This document shows positions 12,144 to 64,000 of a DNA stretch of 64,000 nucleotides, in pieces. The position numbers and the translations under genes were made by a program. This DNA comes from Gemmatimonadota bacterium (GTDB taxonomy: Bacteria > Gemmatimonadota > Gemmatimonadetes > JACCXV01 > JAHWKZ01): positions 8,588 through 72,587 of the forward strand of contig JBHEOA010000176.1 in assembly GCA_046261835.1 (NCBI GenBank). The letters run 5' to 3'. Positions within the stretch are counted from its first letter, which is position 1; each line of letters begins with the position of its first letter. The notes beneath the pieces were generated by a model. The model saw nothing but the letters and a program-made list of their open reading frames with translations. It did no database searches and was not told where the DNA came from.

Positions 12144-12386
12144 ATGCTGTCCCTGACGATCAAGAACGTCCCCCGCGAGGTCTACCGCCGGCTCAAAGAA
12201 CTAGCGGCCGCCAATCGGCGCAGCCTGAACAGCGAGGTGATCGTACGCCTCGAGCAATCGCTGGGCATCAGGAACCTCGATCCCGATGATTTCCTTCGTG
12301 AAGTCGACGAGCTCCGTGAGAGCCTGAACGTCACGCCGGTCGACGACGAAGCCCTTCGGACGATGAAGGCCGGGGGACGACCCTGA
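12144..12386 (+). CDS. vapB: VapB-type antitoxin (Arc/CopG/RHH-like, plasmid-stability StbC-like)
   Basis: 80 aa with N-terminus MLSLTIKNVPREVYRRLKELAAANRRSLNSEVIVRLE, typical of RHH antitoxins. Immediately upstream of the PIN-domain gene. Confidence 0.8.
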   Translation: MLSLTIKNVPREVYRRLKELAAANRRSLNSEVIVRLEQSLGIRNLDPDDFLREVDELRESLNVTPVDDEALRTMKAGGRP

Positions 12387-12796
12387 TCGCGACCGACACC
12401 AATGTCGTCGCCGCCTTGTTCCTCTCCGGGCCGCGAACGTCACAGGCACGGATCGCCTTTCGCAAGGACAATGAATGGATCGCGCCTCATCTCTGGCGGA
12501 GCGAGTTCCGCAACATCCTCGTGAGCTACATGCGCCGTAGGGAACTGAGCACCGTACAGGCGCTCAGGCTGGCGACGACGGCGGAGCGATTGTTCGAAAG
12601 GCGGGAGATGCCGGTGCGCTCCGAGCGCGTCCTCGACCTGGCGGCCGAGTCGGGATGCACGGCCTACGACTGCGAGTTCATTGCCGTGGCACAGGATGCC
12701 GGAACTCTCCTCGTCACCGACGATTTTCAGTTGCTTTTGGCGTTTCCAGGTGTCGCGATTTCGCTGGCCGCTTTCGTGGGGGACGAGTCGACGTAG
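12383..12796 (+). CDS. vapC: VapC PIN-domain toxin (probable CTG start overlapping the vapB stop)
   Basis: PIN-domain N-terminus (L/M)IATDTNVV... includes the catalytic Asp. The first in-frame ATG/GTG/TTG (TTG at 12416) lies downstream of that Asp. CTG at 12383 overlaps the vapB TGA (CTGA). Confidence 0.75.
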   Translation: MIATDTNVVAALFLSGPRTSQARIAFRKDNEWIAPHLWRSEFRNILVSYMRRRELSTVQALRLATTAERLFERREMPVRSERVLDLAAESGCTAYDCEFIAVAQDAGTLLVTDDFQLLLAFPGVAISLAAFVGDEST

Positions 12797-27800: not shown

Positions 27801-28057
27801 ATTGCGCCGAGGCGAGGGACGAGAGCGGCTTGGACCAGGACGGCGTAACGTTGCCCGACGGCGAGTTCAGCTTTTCGACGGGCGACTCCAACGCGCCGTT
27901 CGGCCTTCGACTGGTGGACGCCCGTGCGTCTTTTGGTGTCGGCGTGCGGATGAACCTCTTCGGGTTCGCCGTCATGCGATTCGACTACGCTGTGCCGACG
28001 GATCTGGCGTCGCTGGGCAATGGCAAGGTCCTCTTCACCCTGGCTCCCGAGTTCTGA
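24872..28057 (+). CDS. large outer-membrane protein: HExxH domain, PD40 beta-propeller repeats, Omp85-like C-terminal barrel (paralog B)
   Basis: GTG start followed by a hydrophobic leader. HELVH motif followed by downstream EGMAEY. Repeated SPDG...(AF) PD40 motifs. The C-terminus (...RFDYAVP...FTLAPEF) ends in Phe. Same architecture as the 9025-12072 protein. Confidence 0.75.
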   Translation: MVAFLLLLPSPASPQFGKNKVQYQAFDFRVLETDHFHIYYYPEEEAAVMDAARMAERGYARLAKVFRHQWDEKKPLILYASQSDFQQTNIFRFQLDEGIQGVTEGLRNRIVLFFPSAYPDFDHTLTHELVHAFQYDIMRRGALSQGNHPFAFRPPLWFLEGMAEYLSTGEIDAQTAMWLRDASLSGYLTSLDELSSVGDIRVYRFGQGIWYYVGTKYGDEKIGEIMQKAPLVGVDEAFKDVIGLTLEELSDDWLEAVRLTYFPQALAFQPAQSVAERLTSHVRERTSINIAPAVSPDGRRVAFLSDRDYFNDLYVADLDDPSNPDKLVKGERTASFESLRFLRAGVAFSPDGEYLAFSSKAGEQDALYIMHVDDEEIVAVHRFGLEGIETPSWSPDGERLVFTGLEGGTSDLFVVGREGTDLRRLTHDRFGQRDPTWSPDGGRIAFTTEFGPGTDFELLAYDDYKIGILDLASGGITYVPDQAGRNINPQWGPEGRTLAYVSDRTGIANIFLYDFDRGTHHQLTDLLTGVSGVTETSPALSWSRDGRTMVFSAFADAGWDLYRLDDPLALVREPYVSRAESEFDLAASVFVPEDEERPADVTSSPGGAGPGAANGDKPAGSQTTEVSTVGRRPDPFGIPLDERRPRRAERPPMRIPSFEDPVDVPTLLEDPTLGLPRDTSTYEIRPYEIEFQPDIIAQPEVGFVTGLGAFGASQLAFSDLLGDHNLYVAASVYGSVTDSDLFFTYANLRRRLNWGASAFQFRSDFAPLAVSSVDDVTLLYRSDVYRGGQLFGAYPLSRFRRVEFGAVAAYVDRRIAKFEVFAAAPEIEEDLPDQGFAAPSAAYVYDTAYYGSTGPVGGSRQRLEVQRAFGDQAFTQLYGDVRSYWLLRRDLTLASRLLFLGVYGQHAENLRFQSIGGPTLLRGYEFRDPKLRGTEVGLLNVELRFPIADRPHIAGALFPPLRGALWFDLGYARCSGNCAEARDESGLDQDGVTLPDGEFSFSTGDSNAPFGLRLVDARASFGVGVRMNLFGFAVMRFDYAVPTDLASLGNGKVLFTLAPEF

Positions 28058-29721
28058 AGTCCGCTGCTCCCTTCCTGGCCCGCGACCTCTTCGCGACAGC
28101 CGTTTTCCTTGCCGTCTTCGTCTTCGTGGGACACGCAAACGTGCAAGGGCAATCGAAGGCCAACTCCTACGACGACCTAGTCGAGCTCTTCTTCGCGTGG
28201 CGCGAATTCCAGGCTCCGGAGATGATCGTGGGCGTGCCGGATTACGGCCGCGAGGCGATGGAGCGCCAGCATCGGGAGCTCGCCGAATGGCAGCGACGTC
28301 TCGGTGCCATCGACACGACCGGATGGCCGGTGTCGCAGCAGATCGACTGGTACCTCGTCTGGGCGGAGATGAACGGGCTCGACTTCGAGCACCGGGTCAC
28401 TAGGCCGTGGGAGAGAGATCCCGCCTTCTACGTCTGGCTCTTTCCTTCCCCGACCGACGTGCCGGCGCGCGAAGGGCCGAACATCCACGCCAGGATCGAG
28501 CTACCGAGCTACGCGCGGCCACTCTCCGCAGCCGATGCCGAGGAAATCGCCGACCGGCTACGGAAGGCAGACGCCCTGTTCCAAGCGGCGCGCATCAACC
28601 TGACGGGCAACGCGCGAGACCTCTGGCTCACGGGCATCCGCAGCATCCGGGAGCAGAGCGAGGACCTCGCAGTCTTCGCCGAATCGGTGAAAGACACTCA
28701 CCCCGATCTCGCCGCCGCGGCTCTCGAGGCGCGCGCCGCGTCGGACGAGTTCGCGGGCTGGCTGGCCGAACGAGCAGGGTCCAAGACCGGGGTGTCCGGC
28801 GTCGGCAAGGAGAACTACACGTGGAATCTCAGGAACGTCCACCTCCTGCCGTATTCGTGGGAAGACGAGGTGCTGCTGCTCGAGCGCGAGCTGGCGCGCG
28901 CCCACAGCTCGCTTCGCCTCGAAGAGCATAGGAACCGCGACCTCCCGGAGCTCTCGCGGATCGACGATGCCGCGGACTACGACCGGCTCGTGAACGAGGC
29001 TGTGAGCGAGTACATGGATTTCTTGGAGGAGGAAGAGATTCTGCCGGTCAAGGGTTACATGGACGCCGCCCTTCGGGCCCAGATAGGACGGTTCACGCCG
29101 ACCGAGGGGCTGCGCGGATTCTTCGACGAAGTCGTTTACAGGGATCCGATCGTGATGCGAACACATCACTATCACTGGTTCGACCTGGCTCGCATGCGAG
29201 AGGAGCCCAACGAAAGTCCCATCCGCAGCACGCCACTCCTCTACAACATCTTCGACGGCCGCGCAGAGGGTATGGCCACCGCCATGGAGGAGATGATGAT
29301 GCACACGGGGTTGCTGGACGACCGACCCCGAGCACGCGAACTCGTCTGGATCATGCTCGCTCAACGCGCGGCGCGCGGTCTGGGCGGCCTCTACCAGCAC
29401 GGGCTGGAGATGGACTTCCACGAGGCGACGGGCTTCGCTTCGAAATGGACGCCGCGAGGTTGGCTTCCGGCGGAGGGAAGCACGATTCACCACGAGGAGC
29501 AGTTCTATCTCAGGCAGCCGGCTTACGGCGGGAGCTACATCATCGGCAAGATCGAGATCGAGAAGCTGGTTGCGGAATATGCACGGCAGCGGGAGGGCCG
29601 CTTCGTGCTTGCCGATTTTCTGGACAATTTCAACCGGGCGGGTGTCATTCCGGTGTCCCTCATCTATTGGGAATTGACCGGCGACAAATCCATGCTCGAG
29701 GAAGCAATCGGCGCGCGGTAG
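28054..29721 (+). CDS. secreted DUF885-like protein (probable CTG start overlapping the upstream stop)
   Basis: In-frame signal peptide (M/L)KSAAPFLARDLFATAVFLAVFVFVGHA begins at the CTG at 28054, inside a CTGA junction with the paralog-B stop. No ATG/GTG/TTG precedes the signal peptide. The C-terminus (...YLRQPAYGGSYIIGKIEIEKL...) resembles DUF885 proteins. The antisense ORF 28558-29493 is rejected. Confidence 0.55.
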   Translation: MKSAAPFLARDLFATAVFLAVFVFVGHANVQGQSKANSYDDLVELFFAWREFQAPEMIVGVPDYGREAMERQHRELAEWQRRLGAIDTTGWPVSQQIDWYLVWAEMNGLDFEHRVTRPWERDPAFYVWLFPSPTDVPAREGPNIHARIELPSYARPLSAADAEEIADRLRKADALFQAARINLTGNARDLWLTGIRSIREQSEDLAVFAESVKDTHPDLAAAALEARAASDEFAGWLAERAGSKTGVSGVGKENYTWNLRNVHLLPYSWEDEVLLLERELARAHSSLRLEEHRNRDLPELSRIDDAADYDRLVNEAVSEYMDFLEEEEILPVKGYMDAALRAQIGRFTPTEGLRGFFDEVVYRDPIVMRTHHYHWFDLARMREEPNESPIRSTPLLYNIFDGRAEGMATAMEEMMMHTGLLDDRPRARELVWIMLAQRAARGLGGLYQHGLEMDFHEATGFASKWTPRGWLPAEGSTIHHEEQFYLRQPAYGGSYIIGKIEIEKLVAEYARQREGRFVLADFLDNFNRAGVIPVSLIYWELTGDKSMLEEAIGAR

Positions 29722-40932: not shown

Positions 40933-40943
40933 GAGCCCACCTG

Positions 40944-58222: not shown

Positions 58223-59149
58223 ATGAGGCTTCGCTTCGAAACGATCCGGCCTGTTACACGACTGGCGCTGTCGGCTCTCGCGTGCGGCTTGATGCTGACC
58301 GCGGGATGTCTCTACGAGGCGCCGCGCCAGCTTCCCTCTTCGATCCGGATCCTCTATTCCCGGACGACACCCGACTCGTTGGGGACACAAGTCGACATCT
58401 ACTTCCTCGTCGCCCGCGAGGGGAACGAGCTCCGCCTGACAGGGGAATCGGGGGACGACCGTCAACCGACCTTCGCAGCAGGTCTTCGGAAGGTGTTCTT
58501 TTCGCGGCGATCGGGGGCACGCGACGAGATCTGGGCGATGGACCTGGACGGCAGCCAGGAGAGCACCTTACTGGCTTCCGACGGCGTCGACTTTCGCGAT
58601 CCGGCGGTGAGTCCCGACGACACTCGCCTCGCTTTCACGCGTGTGGAGAGCGGCCGGGCAGAGGTGTGGATCGCTGATATCGACGGTCGGAACCCCCGCA
58701 TGCTACTGGCCGAGGGTGGTCCCTGGCGCCAGGCCGCGTGGAGCCCCGACGGCCGGACTCTCGCGATCGTCGGCGGTCCCGAGGGAGCGGGCCGGATCCA
58801 CCTCCTCCCGGCGGCCGGTGGTGCTCCGCGGCCGCTCGCCGCCGGAGGCGATTCTCAGAGCGATCCGGCATGGAGCCCCGACGGAGCTCGCATCGCCTTC
58901 GTTCAGGGCACGGGGCGCTCGGCCGAGATCGCCGTCGCCGAGGTAACGGGTGGAGGCGCGACTCGCCTCACCGAGAACGAGGTGTCCGATGCGGCGCCCG
59001 CATGGAGTCCCGACGGCGAACGGATCGCGTTCGTCTCACGTCGGCCGAACGGCCGCGACAACGTCTGGCTGATGGACCCCGACGGCCGGAACGTCGAGTC
59101 GCTGACTCGCCACGATCGCTCCGACGCCCAAGACCCCGACTGGCTCTAG
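58223..59149 (+). CDS. TolB-like PD40 beta-propeller lipoprotein
   Basis: Lipobox (LMLTAGC). Repeated SPDG...(LA)F PD40 motifs. Confidence 0.7.
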   Translation: MRLRFETIRPVTRLALSALACGLMLTAGCLYEAPRQLPSSIRILYSRTTPDSLGTQVDIYFLVAREGNELRLTGESGDDRQPTFAAGLRKVFFSRRSGARDEIWAMDLDGSQESTLLASDGVDFRDPAVSPDDTRLAFTRVESGRAEVWIADIDGRNPRMLLAEGGPWRQAAWSPDGRTLAIVGGPEGAGRIHLLPAAGGAPRPLAAGGDSQSDPAWSPDGARIAFVQGTGRSAEIAVAEVTGGGATRLTENEVSDAAPAWSPDGERIAFVSRRPNGRDNVWLMDPDGRNVESLTRHDRSDAQDPDWL

Positions 59150-60158: not shown

Positions 60159-60737
60159 GTGACAGACTATAAAGTTAGAAGATTCTCATTAGTGAGTCAA
60201 GGAAGATCCGCTGGATCGGCGATGGCGATGCTCCTGACCGTTTTGGCTTGCGCGGCTCCCGTCTCGACGATGCGGAGTCCCTATCATCTCCGCGTGGTCG
60301 AGGTCCGTAACGATTCGGATCAGCTCCGCACCCTCAAGATCGAACCGGCCGCGGACCAGCACCTCGGCTCCGCCACCACCTTCACCGGCATGCTGCGTCC
60401 CGGCGAGGTCAAGGTCCTCTACCTGTATCACGGCTTCGAGTACGACTTCCGGATCCTTGACCCGGCCGGCTTCAACGAGGTGACGCGGACGACGGTCGCG
60501 GTCGACCGCGACATGGGCCTGTTGTTCGCCGGCGATTCGCTGACCACCGGGACCCGGCTGGTCGCGCGGATCGGCGAGCCCACGGTGACCTTCGCCGACA
60601 GTCTCCAGGAGTCCGACCCCTTCGGACTGCGTCGCACCCGCGCGATCGAGCCCGACACGAGCCGTGGGCACTATCCTTCACCCGCCGGAGGCCACGTCGG
60701 CGAGCGGGGGAATCCCGAGAAGAGGGGAACGCCGTAG
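60159..60737 (+). CDS. hypothetical lipoprotein
   Basis: Signal peptide with lipobox (MAMLLTVLAC). The start may be GTG at 60192 or ATG at 60222 rather than 60159. An AT-rich divergent promoter region lies at 60134-60200. Confidence 0.45.
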   Translation: MTDYKVRRFSLVSQGRSAGSAMAMLLTVLACAAPVSTMRSPYHLRVVEVRNDSDQLRTLKIEPAADQHLGSATTFTGMLRPGEVKVLYLYHGFEYDFRILDPAGFNEVTRTTVAVDRDMGLLFAGDSLTTGTRLVARIGEPTVTFADSLQESDPFGLRRTRAIEPDTSRGHYPSPAGGHVGERGNPEKRGTP

Positions 60738-60769
60738 CCCGCTCCGCGCCGCGCCGGCGAAGGGCCGGG

Positions 60770-61438
60770 AAATCGGCGCGCGAAGTCCGAGCCATCCTCG
60801 ACGCGCTCGGCAGAGCGTACCCCGAGGGACGAACCGCTCTCGACTACCAGACCCCGTTTCAGCTCCTCGTGGCGACGATCCTCTCGGCCCAGTGCACCGA
60901 CGTTCGCGTGAATGCGGTCACGCCCGAGCTCTTCGCGGATCACCCCGATGCCGAGGCGATCGCCTCCATGAGCCAGGAAGACCTGGAACGGGCCATCAAG
61001 ACGTGCGGGCTCTACCGCGGCAAGGCACGGAACATCCTCGCCGCAGCGCGCACAATCGCATCCGAGCATGGGGGCGAAGTACCCGCTTCACGCGAGGCGC
61101 TCGAGCGACTCCCGGGAGTGGGCCGCAAGACCGCCAACGTCGTCCTCTCGAACGTCTTCGACGAGCCGGCGATCGCCGTCGACACGCACGTCTTCCGCGT
61201 TTCGCGCCGGCTCGGACTAGCCCGAGGAGATACGCCGCGCGAGGTCGAGGAGGAGTTGATGGCTGCGCTGCCGCCAGAATCGTGGACGTCGGCTCATCAC
61301 CGCCTCATCCTCCACGGGCGCCGCGTCTGTCAGGCGCGTCGTCCGCGCTGCGAAGAGTGTCCTTTGACCCGCTGGTGCGATTGGTATCAGGAGAACGTCG
61401 CTCGGCGAAAACCGGCTGCCCGGCGAACGAGGCGCTAG
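60770..61438 (+). CDS. nth: endonuclease III (5' boundary unresolved)
   Basis: ...ILDALGRAYPEGRTALDYQTPFQLLVATILSAQCTD. Helix-hairpin-helix LPGVGRKTANVVL. Catalytic DTH. [4Fe-4S] cluster C-x6-C-xx-C-x5-C. The conserved N-terminus extends about 30 codons upstream of the first in-frame canonical start (GTG at 60869). Confidence 0.8.
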   Translation, partial: KSAREVRAILDALGRAYPEGRTALDYQTPFQLLVATILSAQCTDVRVNAVTPELFADHPDAEAIASMSQEDLERAIKTCGLYRGKARNILAAARTIASEHGGEVPASREALERLPGVGRKTANVVLSNVFDEPAIAVDTHVFRVSRRLGLARGDTPREVEEELMAALPPESWTSAHHRLILHGRRVCQARRPRCEECPLTRWCDWYQENVARRKPAARRTRR

Positions 61439-61449
61439 CTTTGAAGAGA

Positions 61450-62109
61450 ATGTCGCTTCCCGAGCTCACGTGGCGCTTCGCCCGCGAAGCGCTGCCCTTT
61501 TTTGTGGGGTTGCTCGCGATTGCCGCCACGGCGTGGGCGCTGGGGTGGCCGCTGGTAGCGCTGGGCTCGCTTTTGGCGGCGTTCCTCGCCCTCGCCTTCT
61601 TCCGTGATCCCGAGCGTCGAACGCATGCCGATCCGGGAGTCGTGCTCGCCCCGGCTGACGGTCGCGTCGTGCGCGTCCTTTCCCCGGCCCAGGGACGGGG
61701 CGCCGTGATCTCGATTTTCCTGTCGATCTTCAACGTCCACATCAACCGGGTTCCCGTCTCGGGGCAGGTGGTTGCGGTGGAACAGAGTCCCGGCGGCTTC
61801 AAGCCCGCGTTTCGCGAGGACGCCTCCGAACGGAATGCCCACGTCGCTGTGCGCATCGAGACGCCCTGGGGAATCGTCGAGTGTGTTCAGATCGTGGGGC
61901 TTCTCGCGCGCCGCATCGTGTGCCGCCTCAAGCCTGGAGATCGGATCGAGGCGGGACAGCGCTACGGTCTAATCCAGTTCGGCTCGCGCGTAGACGTCCG
62001 ACTGCCTGCGACCGCCGCGGTTCTGGTCGAGATTGGTCGCAGGACACGCGCCGGCGTGACGGTGCTCGCACACTTGGGGGGCGATGCGCCCCGGGGAGCC
62101 GCAGTCTGA
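61450..62109 (+). CDS. psd: phosphatidylserine decarboxylase-related protein (short Asd/Psd type)
   Basis: About 219 aa. ...FRDPER..P.DG....N.HVNRVPVSG...NER.A...ETPWG...QIVGLLARRIV...FGSRVD. TTG at 61441 is an alternative start. Confidence 0.75.
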   Translation: MSLPELTWRFAREALPFFVGLLAIAATAWALGWPLVALGSLLAAFLALAFFRDPERRTHADPGVVLAPADGRVVRVLSPAQGRGAVISIFLSIFNVHINRVPVSGQVVAVEQSPGGFKPAFREDASERNAHVAVRIETPWGIVECVQIVGLLARRIVCRLKPGDRIEAGQRYGLIQFGSRVDVRLPATAAVLVEIGRRTRAGVTVLAHLGGDAPRGAAV

Positions 62110-62906
62110 GACCTAGATTCGAGCCCGTCCTGCGCGAGACCCGGCGGGCCCGGCTGCGACGCCGGATCCACCTTCTGCCGGACCTTTTCACGATTGGCAA
62201 CCTCTTCGCCGGCTATTTCGCGGTCAGCGCCGTCCTTGCTGGGCTATTCGACCGGGCGGCGATCGCGATCGTCGTCGGCTTCGTGCTCGACTCCCTCGAC
62301 GGTTCGGTGGCCCGGCTCGTCCGCACGCCTTCTCGGATCGGCGTCCAGCTCGACTCGCTGGCCGATGTCGTGACCTTTGGAATTGCTCCCGCGATCCTGG
62401 CATTGGCGTGGGGCGCCTGGCCCGCGTCGGCTACCGACCCGGTTTGGGGCGCACATCTGCGGCGATTGGCGTGGATCGCCTCATTCGCGTTCGTCGCCGC
62501 CGGCACTCTTCGCCTCGCGCGCTTCAACGTGATGTCCACGGCCCATGCGCCCGCTGCGCCGACCACGCGGCGCGAAGCGTTCATCGGAATGCCGATACCG
62601 GTCGCGGGTCTGTGCGTCGCCATCGTCCTTCATCTGATCAAAGCACCCCAGCGGGGGTGGCCCTACAGCGCCGCCGGGCTCGTCTATCTCTTCACTCTCG
62701 CCGGACTCATGGTGAGCCGCATCCCATTCCCCCACTTTCGGCACATCCTGTCGAGTCCCCGACATCCCCACCTCCTGATGCTCGTGCTTGCCCTGCTCCT
62801 GCCCGCCCTTTACTTCTACTCGGAGATCGTGCTCTTTGGTCTTCTCGGCCTGTATCTTTCCAGCGTCGTCCTGTACAACGTCCGGCGGCGCCACGGAACC
62901 GGCTAA
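62106..62906 (+). CDS. pssA: CDP-diacylglycerol--serine O-phosphatidyltransferase (CDP-alcohol phosphatidyltransferase family); probable CTG start overlapping the psd stop
   Basis: LPDLFTIGNLFAGY...DSLDGSVAR...G..LDSLADVVTFGIAP is the CDP-OH phosphotransferase motif. No ATG/GTG/TTG is in frame before that motif. CTG at 62106 sits in a CTGA junction with the psd TGA. Confidence 0.75.
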   Translation: MRPRFEPVLRETRRARLRRRIHLLPDLFTIGNLFAGYFAVSAVLAGLFDRAAIAIVVGFVLDSLDGSVARLVRTPSRIGVQLDSLADVVTFGIAPAILALAWGAWPASATDPVWGAHLRRLAWIASFAFVAAGTLRLARFNVMSTAHAPAAPTTRREAFIGMPIPVAGLCVAIVLHLIKAPQRGWPYSAAGLVYLFTLAGLMVSRIPFPHFRHILSSPRHPHLLMLVLALLLPALYFYSEIVLFGLLGLYLSSVVLYNVRRRHGTG

Positions 62907-62958
62907 ACGGGGACCTGCCCACCGGAGTTTGAGTCACGACAACGCGAGGAGTTCTCGT

Positions 62959-63555
62959 CTGGCCGACATCGATCCCGACGTCTTGACGCGCGCCCAGGAG
63001 GGCGATCGCGCCGCGTTCGACGAGCTGGTCCGCTTCTACCGCCAGGACCTGCTGAGGGTCGTCTATCGTTTCGTCGGCAACTACGAGGATGCGCGCGACG
63101 TGCTCCAGCATGTCTTCGTCAAGGTCTATCTCAACATCGACCGGTGGCAGCCGCGAGCGCCGTTTTGGTCGTGGCTCTATCGGATCGCGGTGAACGAATC
63201 CCTCGGCTGGAAGAAACGTGAGCAGCGGCGTTACAGTCTGGTCGCCCCGATCGAGGACAGCTCCCTGCCCGAAGCCTCCAGCGGGGCGCCTTCACCGCTC
63301 GACGAGGTCGCGTGGCGCGAGATGGGGCTTCGTGTCCTCGAAGCGATAGAGCAGCTGCCCGAGATGCAAAAGGCGACCTTCGTGCTACGCTTCCGCGAAC
63401 AGCTCTCGGTGAAGGAGACGGCCGCGATCCTCGGCTGCGCCGAGGGTACGGTGAAGGCCAACGGTTATCACGCGATCCGGCGCCTGCGGAAGATCCTGGG
63501 AGCCGACGCGATCGAATGGGGGGCGGGGGAGGAATCCCTCGCACAAGGAGAATGA
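62959..63555 (+). CDS. ECF-subfamily RNA polymerase sigma-70 factor
   Basis: Region 2 (...AQEGDRAAFDELVRFYRQDL...YRIAVNESL). Region 4 (...LPEMQKATFVLRFREQLSVKETAAILGCAEGTVKA...). GAGGAG (62946-62951) lies 7 nt upstream of the CTG at 62959. The alternative canonical start TTG at 62983 lacks a Shine-Dalgarno sequence. Confidence 0.75.
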   Translation: MADIDPDVLTRAQEGDRAAFDELVRFYRQDLLRVVYRFVGNYEDARDVLQHVFVKVYLNIDRWQPRAPFWSWLYRIAVNESLGWKKREQRRYSLVAPIEDSSLPEASSGAPSPLDEVAWREMGLRVLEAIEQLPEMQKATFVLRFREQLSVKETAAILGCAEGTVKANGYHAIRRLRKILGADAIEWGAGEESLAQGE

Positions 63556-64000
63556 GTCCACTCAAATGCCATACGGTCCGTGAGGCGATTTGGGAGCGCG
63601 CGGCGAGCGCGGGGCCCGCACCGCTCACGCCGGCCCTGGCCGATCACCTGGCGTCGTGCAACGGCTGCCAGGTGGAGGGCCGCGCGGTCGCGGATCTCCT
63701 CGAGGTGGCGCGGACGTACCCCACCCCGACACCTCCAGCCGACATCTGGGACGGGTTCGACGAGGAGCTCCGTCAGCAGCTGTCGGCGGCCGGACGCGAG
63801 CCGTCGGCGTGGCTCCGGTGGGGACGACGACGCATCACCTCGATGGCGGCCGTTCTCGTCGTAGGATTCGCGCTGGGTATCGCCGCTGCCCGGTTGGGAG
63901 GCTCCACAGAGGGCGAGCGGACCGCCGCCGAACAGGCGCTTCTCGCCGAGCTGACAGAAGACGCTCGGCTCGAGGCGTACCGGCTCCAGATCGAGGAGCG
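63552..64000 (+). CDS. anti-sigma factor (zinc-binding ChrR/RsrA-like N-terminus, single transmembrane helix); 3' end outside window
   Basis: ATG overlaps the sigma-factor stop (ATGA). H-x3-C-x2-C motif (HLASCNGC). A transmembrane helix (ITSMAAVLVVGFALGIAAA) downstream. Open to the window edge. Confidence 0.5.
   Translation, partial: MSPLKCHTVREAIWERAASAGPAPLTPALADHLASCNGCQVEGRAVADLLEVARTYPTPTPPADIWDGFDEELRQQLSAAGREPSAWLRWGRRRITSMAAVLVVGFALGIAAARLGGSTEGERTAAEQALLAELTEDARLEAYRLQIEE

Follow-up and report, generated by a model that had tools for sequence, protein, structure and literature searches.

A probable CTG start codon in an extracytoplasmic function sigma factor gene of a Gemmatimonadota bacterium

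To our knowledge, bacterial initiation at CTG is documented for a handful of genes only. Here we describe the gene of an extracytoplasmic function (ECF) sigma factor, located towards the end of a 64,000-nucleotide stretch of DNA from a Gemmatimonadota bacterium (contig JBHEOA010000176.1 of assembly GCA_046261835.1; this whole stretch is hereafter called the window, and all positions refer to it). Its proposed CTG start at position 62959 joins the rare CTG-start genes that are already known, among which there are precedents driven by a Shine-Dalgarno (SD) sequence.

In Escherichia coli, the chromosomal genes hda and yfjD start at CTG, as confirmed by mutagenesis and fusions, and in yfjD a nearby TTG (codon 9) that had been annotated as the start proved irrelevant (PMC3531124). 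The sigma gene resembles both of them in that the CTG was predicted from sequence conservation together with a suitably placed ribosome-binding site, and the annotation error in yfjD has its parallel in two TTG codons of the sigma gene, TTG 62929 and TTG 62983. It differs from them in that the case for its CTG comes exclusively from comparative genomics, and in that it belongs to a different organism (Gemmatimonadota) and is a different gene, encoding an ECF sigma factor. The rep gene of RepFIB plasmids also combines a CTG start with a good ribosome-binding site, a combination that is thought to have been selected for low expression, and it is commonly mis-annotated at a nearby canonical codon (PMC11983097). 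CTG with a good SD, a regulatory protein as product and mis-annotation are thus common to rep and to the sigma gene, whereas rep encodes a plasmid replication initiator whose CTG is fixed across FIB replicons, and at the start of the sigma gene CTG is one of several codons used by orthologues, next to TTG, GTG and ATG.

In Deinococcus-Thermus, rpsL and Deide_03051 start at CTG and dnaA at ATC; these cases came to light because the proteins would otherwise lack conserved N-terminal residues, and the possibility of a relaxed start selection at the level of the lineage was raised (Baudet et al., 2010, PMC2830850). The lineage considered here would be similar in having several genes with non-canonical starts, although the Deinococcus cases amount to four genes in one whole genome and are backed by peptide evidence, whereas here four CTG candidates were recognized from sequence within 64 kb. 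Finally, autoregulated operons of ECF sigma and anti-sigma factors have as hallmarks an AAC at -35, a CGT at -10, co-transcription of the anti-sigma gene and positive autoregulation (PMC8103513). The locus in the window likewise encodes a protein that has the two domains sigma-2 and sigma-4, followed by an overlapping anti-sigma gene with an HxxxCxxC motif, and upstream it likewise carries a conserved AAC...(C)GT(T) motif whose spacing is fixed. Unlike those operons, its promoter is a predicted one that lies inside the 3' end of the upstream gene pssA, with a -10-like block reading AGTTT in place of CGTTT.

The CTG codon and the orthologous starts

The product of the sigma open reading frame (ORF) is an ECF (group IV) sigma factor of the sigma-70 family; it matched the Pfam models Sigma70_r2 (1.5e-14), Sigma70_r4_2 (2.8e-12) and Sigma70_ECF, and it scored 93.4 bits with the NCBIfam model TIGR02937 of the sigma70-ECF superfamily, for which the cut-off is 42.9. 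On the comparative evidence given below, CTG 62959 is likely to be the principal start of this gene, from which a protein of 198 amino acids (aa) beginning fMet-Ala-Asp-Ile-Asp-Pro would be made. The elements of the locus are as follows.

62946..62951, + strand: Shine-Dalgarno sequence GAGGAG, read from the sequence
62952..62958, + strand: spacer TTCTCGT of 7 nt, read from the sequence
62959..62961, + strand: CTG, proposed initiation codon, aligned with the orthologue starts ATG/GTG/TTG and located at the change-point of coding potential
62959..63555, + strand: coding sequence of the ECF sigma factor, 198 aa if counted from the CTG, with stop TGA at 63553-63555
62929..62931, + strand: rival start TTG, in frame, which would give 208 aa (MSHDNARSSR...); the start of the public annotation
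62983..62985, + strand: rival start TTG, in frame, which would give 190 aa (MTRAQEGD...); the start of one IMG call, P0129
62904..62908, + strand: -35-like block TAAAC, overlapping the pssA stop TAA 62904-62906
62927..62932, + strand: -10-like block GTTTGA, including the in-frame TTG 62929-62931
63552..64000, + strand: anti-sigma factor gene, whose ATG overlaps the sigma stop (ATGA) and which continues past the end of the window

The reading frame of the sigma gene is open from 62779, the preceding in-frame stop being TGA 62776. Between that stop and region 2 there is no in-frame ATG or GTG, in agreement with a first-pass annotation of this DNA, which had proposed that GAGGAG at 62946-62951, followed by a 7-nt spacer, serves an in-frame CTG at 62959; these positions were borne out by the sequence. 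The same annotation had described TTG 62983 as devoid of an SD, and we found this codon to be in frame with no purine-rich motif in the preceding 20 nt. It had also held that CTG 62959 does not depend on coupling to an upstream stop, and in fact the pssA stop lies 53 nt upstream with no overlap. In contrast, its presentation of TTG 62983 as the sole canonical alternative has to be given up, since further in-frame TTG codons occur at 62929, 62836 and 62788, the last two within pssA and TTG 62929 in the intergenic region past the pssA stop. The central proposal, namely that CTG 62959 with its GAGGAG is an initiation codon and supports CTG initiation in this genome, was favoured by five independent computational lines that agree with one another: the alignment of orthologue starts, the presence of CTG in two clades, purifying selection, the onset of coding potential, and three more CTG genes in the window.

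Before the confident ATG and GTG starts of genes in the window, GAGGAG or GGAGG at a distance of 5-8 nt is common, so that GAGGAG with a 7-nt spacer represents a normal strong ribosome-binding site here. The letters of the spacer vary freely in close relatives (TCCGCGC in locus L082, TCCTCGT in locus L104). Nothing unusual was observed in the RNA structure around the sigma start site (z = 0.36), and a search upstream of the sigma gene for a promoter of the sigma-70 type found none.

About 65 of the 80 closest homologous proteins begin with M-A-D/E-I-A/D-P exactly at the position of the window CTG, and most orthologous proteins are 195-199 aa long. We also compared 35 orthologous DNA loci, all from Gemmatimonadota (the window, L001-L025, L081-L088 and L104-L106). 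The codon at the aligned start was TTG in 17 loci, CTG in nine, GTG in five and ATG in four, that is, a canonical ATG, GTG or TTG in 26/35, and an SD-like purine run 3-8 nt ahead of the start codon was found in nearly all orthologues. Because both the orthologous proteins and the DNA loci align there, CTG 62959 occupies the conserved start-codon position of the family. Locus L104, whose protein belongs to the same 90% cluster as that of L081, has a TTG at the conserved start behind the same GAGGAG at 7 nt, and a 1-nt indel upstream shifts its upstream TTG out of frame. A scan of metagenomes for GAGGAG-N7-CTGGCCGAYATCG returned 15 matches, all of them chance occurrences in unrelated genes, and yielded no new orthologues.

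In neighbour-joining trees, the CTG-bearing sequences fell into two groups, one formed by the window, L081, L082, L083 and L087, and the other by L086, L088, L105 and L106 (100% bootstrap), with canonical-start lineages separating them. The first group together with L084 and L104, both of which carry TTG, also formed a wider group at 100% bootstrap, within which the TTG-bearing L104 joins the window, L081 and L082 with the same value. The CTG of the L086/L088/L105/L106 group evidently arose independently of that in the window's clade. The separation of the two CTG groups and the placement of L104 mean that at least three changes between T and C have taken place at the first base of the start codon.

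Three of the CTG-bearing loci have in-frame stops ahead of the CTG, namely L087 (TGA, 10 codons), L088 (TAA, 21 codons) and L105 (TAA, 36 codons), and no ATG, GTG, TTG or ATN was present between the stop and the CTG in any of them. Gene callers shortened these proteins to 175, 178 and 162 aa, respectively, that is, into the conserved region 2, because no accepted start codon precedes the CTG. Among the CTG-bearing sequences, the ratio of nonsynonymous to synonymous change (pN/pS) over codons 2-24 was 0.1-0.6 at a pS of ~0.5, which argues that these codons are translated and have been under selection in genomes that diverged considerably since the CTG arose. Furthermore, a codon-usage model blind to start codons placed the onset of coding exactly at 62959. 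The eight codons that follow the CTG had a log-odds of +4.2 (74th percentile), whereas the 10 codons of segment 62929-62958 had -6.1; among in-gene windows this value lies at the 0.1th percentile, and each of 14/14 confident genes scored better at its N-terminus.

Rival starts and the upstream motif

Several observations weigh against CTG 62959 as the start. In E. coli reporters, CUG initiates at ~1-2% of AUG (bioRxiv 10.1101/063800). All the sequences that were compared are metagenome assemblies. GAGGAG occurs 133 times in the window (both strands), and pairs of the form GAGGAG-N5-9-CTG occur 13 times in it against ~9 expected from trinucleotide frequency; with 13 such pairs, we rejected the combination of SD and CTG as significant in itself. 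What sets this site apart is its position, as it emerges from comparison with orthologues, and not the motif pair. The other unfavourable observations concern the promoter-like motif and TTG 62929, and are given together with them.

If the start had moved upstream to TTG 62929, a 208-aa protein with the 10-residue extension MSHDNARSSR would be produced, CTG 62959 would be an internal leucine left by the decay of an ancestral TTG start, and GAGGAG would be a relic encoding Arg-Ser. This TTG is in frame, intergenic and canonical, lies 30 nt upstream of the CTG, and is the start chosen by NCBI (MFN2422051.1, P0122, 208 aa) and in most IMG calls; the poor performance of CUG as an initiator in E. 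coli also counts in its favour. Of the five CTG-bearing members of the window's clade, four keep it in frame (the window and L081-L083, at 30, 30, 30 and 33 nt), and its overlap with the stop of pssA in L081-L083 (TTGA) could permit coupled reinitiation on pssA read-through transcripts. In addition, when the 30-nt segment is compared between the window, L081 and L082, third codon positions account for four of the five nucleotide differences (P ~0.05 by our own binomial estimate). Nevertheless, we consider a start at TTG 62929 unlikely. It is preceded by a GGAG at just 1 nt, a spacer that is too short, and the equivalent TTG is out of frame in L087 (a CTG locus) as well as in L104 and L084 (both TTG loci). 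Some 70 orthologues that have canonical starts lack the extension, its residues in L083 show non-conservative changes (SHDNARSSR versus RGELNARRRP), and its codon usage, at the 0.1th percentile for the genome, is the one that fell below all 14 confident N-termini. In the independent CTG clade, moreover, L088 and L105 have no comparable upstream alternative.

TTG 62929 also lies within an RTTTG block that is kept in all 32 orthologues in any frame, and since the block is conserved whatever the frame, another function would explain the conservation of this TTG. When the upstream regions were aligned, two blocks proved invariant, yTAAACc and c(G/A)TTTg, with a distance from AAC to TTT of exactly 19 nt in 32/32 loci. 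Expressed as TAAAC-N18-RTTT, with T(A/G)AAC as the first block and (C/A/G/T)(G/A)TTT as the second, the motif is present in every one of these loci; the stretch that separates the blocks shows no conservation, and the second block stands 24 to 63 nt ahead of the start codon, depending on the locus. A single copy of the exact motif was found in the window, where 0.01 occurrences would be expected, and it was found once per orthologous locus and otherwise in just three unrelated loci. Because it matches the ECF hallmarks (PMC8103513), we read it as a putative autoregulated ECF-type promoter. TTG 62929 would then be conserved as part of this promoter-like motif and, being inside the -10-like block, would lie upstream of the transcript's first nucleotide, so that the autoregulated mRNA probably lacks it. 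Unfavourable to this interpretation is that the -10-like block of the window is AGTTT and not the commoner CGTTT.

The blocks of the motif are partly palindromic. That AAAC...GTTT might close a hairpin or a terminator at its base was considered and rejected, and a motif acting at the DNA level was preferred, as the folds of the individual sequences were weak and inconsistent, and neither a terminator-like site nor an Rfam family was found. In the same region, the frame of the C-terminal tail of pssA differs between the window and its close relatives L081, L082 and L104, as a result of 1-2 nt indels near 62890. The pssA stop of the window is a TAA inside the -35-like TAAAC, and that of the relatives a TGA inside the -10-like TTTGA.

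A different explanation is that the gene is decaying, the change from TTG to CTG having been slightly deleterious or inactivating so that little or no sigma factor is produced in this lineage. A single T-to-C transition suffices to produce CTG, which is a weak initiator in model bacteria. However, the sigma ORF is intact, pN/pS over codons 25-100 was 0.06-0.15 in the five CTG sequences of the window's clade (clade A) and 0.2-0.4 against the second CTG clade at a pS of ~0.5, and these low values argue that the protein remained under strong selection long after the CTG arose. The CTG also persists in five diverged sequences of one clade and in four of another, and both the SD and the coupled anti-sigma gene have been kept. 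We thus regard decay as very improbable. Least probable of all is initiation independent of an SD at TTG 62983, giving the 190-aa protein MTRAQEGD...: it is an in-frame canonical codon used in one IMG gene call on an identical sequence (P0129), but there is no SD-like motif within 20 nt, L081 and L082, the closest relatives, carry a CTG at this position, the whole-protein sigma models RpoE, PRK12513 and SigM align 5-7 residues ahead of it, the residues that would be lost (ADIDPDVL) are conserved and under purifying selection, and coding potential starts eight codons before it.

Coupling of the sigma and anti-sigma genes

In 35/35 loci the anti-sigma gene starts with an ATG that overlaps the 3' end of the sigma gene, the overlap being ATGA in the window's clade and ~20 nt elsewhere; from this overlap, the sigma and anti-sigma genes would be co-transcribed. 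The start of the sigma gene is weak (TTG or CTG) in 74% of the 35 loci, whereas that of the anti-sigma gene is always ATG, and this pattern suggests that selection may act on the ratio of sigma to anti-sigma translation. The anti-sigma protein carries HxxxCxxC at 63645-63668 (H32-C36-C39, within DHLASCNGC, residues 31-39), which we take to be the signature of zinc-binding anti-sigma domains; its NCBIfam match was weak, at 30.7 bits and below the cut-off. The hydrophobic stretch MAAVLVVGFALGIAAA further along the protein suggests a membrane-spanning anti-sigma factor.

With CTG 62959 as the start, expression of the locus could proceed as follows. The mRNA would most likely begin just downstream of the promoter-like motif in the 3' end of pssA. 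GAGGAG 62946-62951 would pair with the 3' end of the 16S rRNA and bring the CTG, 7 nt downstream of it, into the P site of the 30S subunit, where the initiator fMet-tRNA would read CUG with a first-position mismatch, as it does for UUG. Initiation at CUG would probably be weak. Translation of the anti-sigma gene would be coupled to that of the sigma gene through the overlap of its ATG with the sigma gene end, and the weak sigma start may keep the output of sigma factor low and no higher than that of anti-sigma factor.

CTG in other genes of the window and in the lineage

Including the sigma gene, four of the ~55 genes of the window have a CTG at the conserved or expected start. The CTG of pssA, at 62106, overlaps the stop of psd (CTGA) and has GGGGAG 7 nt upstream (62093-62109). 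At this position the pssA orthologues have ATG (L082, L084, L085) or GTG (L105, L106), followed by the conserved peptide, and the nearest canonical in-frame start lies inside psd, 85 codons before the conserved pssA motif. In the gene of a PIN/VapC toxin (12372-12796), the CTG at 12383 shares a CTGA with the stop codon of the preceding ORF, and GGGGGA lies 5 nt ahead of it. Homologues begin with M/V-I-V-V-D-T-N at this CTG, and the alignment to the Pfam PIN model starts at residue 4. The start given by NCBI is the non-canonical ATC 12386, one codon after the CTG (P0264, 136 aa), and the first canonical start, TTG 12416, would remove the DTN motif; one close relative is truncated. The third case is a DUF885 gene (28054-29721), in which CTG 28054 overlaps the upstream stop (CTGA) and opens the signal-peptide-like N-terminus KSAAPFLARDLFATAVFLAVFVFVGHANVQG, inside which the first canonical start, GTG 28126, falls. 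A relative of 92% identity (P0144) is truncated in the same way, and more distant homologues have full signal peptides. The public starts of the sigma gene and of these three other genes are probably wrong. CTG matches at 40941, 37816, 22825, 24809 and 48598 were not counted, since most of them adjoin clear canonical starts and 24809 had no supporting evidence.

An endonuclease III-like gene (HhH-GPD; 60737-60800) has no ATG, GTG, TTG or CTG from the upstream stop to the conserved N-terminal helix, ATC 60794 being the only candidate there. The corresponding gene of L082 (821-947) is also without an NTG start, and its protein was cut back by the gene caller to start at 'LLVATILSAQ'. Differences between the window and L082 upstream of 'LLVATILSAQ' are mostly synonymous, and the region thus appears to be translated.

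In a screen of start codons that was crude, with counts that are small and partly non-independent, 9/161 genes of the Gemmatimonadota relatives had no canonical start near the onset of coding, compared to 1/120 in control loci of high G+C content (high-GC) from other phyla. ORFs of ~207-215 codons, similar in size to the endonuclease III gene, were flagged in L006, L012, L017 and L025. The screen also flagged L082 at ~4376 and L085 at ~2711, by position a Lysine_decarbox/LOG-like gene downstream of the anti-sigma gene. A minus-strand ORF of the window without a canonical start (59035-58703) was judged to be a shadow ORF and rejected; it was outscored in coding potential by the plus-strand ORF 58262-59149, and by eye it looks like the complement of repeated 'SPDG'-type codons.

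CTG starts are annotated in model bacteria at roughly 0.02%. Most gene callers disallow CTG, so genes of this kind are silently mis-annotated. In public records, the sigma factor is 208 or 190 aa long and its relatives range from 162 to 240 aa, against ~198 aa expected. Four candidate genes in 64 kb (sigma 62959, pssA 62106, vapC 12383 and DUF885 28054), whose CTG stands at an ATG or GTG of orthologues or at the point where a signal peptide or a catalytic N-terminus has to start, led us to propose, tentatively, that this Gemmatimonadota lineage may routinely begin several per cent of its genes with CTG, which would thus be a fourth start codon. The repeated switching between TTG and CTG at the sigma start, and the systematic truncation or extension of these genes by gene callers, point in the same direction. 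A frequency of several per cent, if true, would be two to three orders of magnitude above that in model bacteria, and would imply a relaxed discrimination of start codons, be it through IF3, the initiator tRNA or the 16S P site.

The sigma gene offers a clear comparative signature of a CTG start: behind a conserved SD, orthologues differ in having ATG, GTG, TTG or CTG at one and the same codon. A regulatory reason for such a start is suggested as well, in that a weak sigma start followed by an overlapping, ATG-started anti-sigma gene may keep the anti-sigma factor in excess. If the cluster found in these 64 kb mirrors the whole genome, relaxed start-codon selection could be studied in this lineage as in a natural system, and there would be a case for including CTG in the gene-calling models applied to Gemmatimonadota metagenomes.

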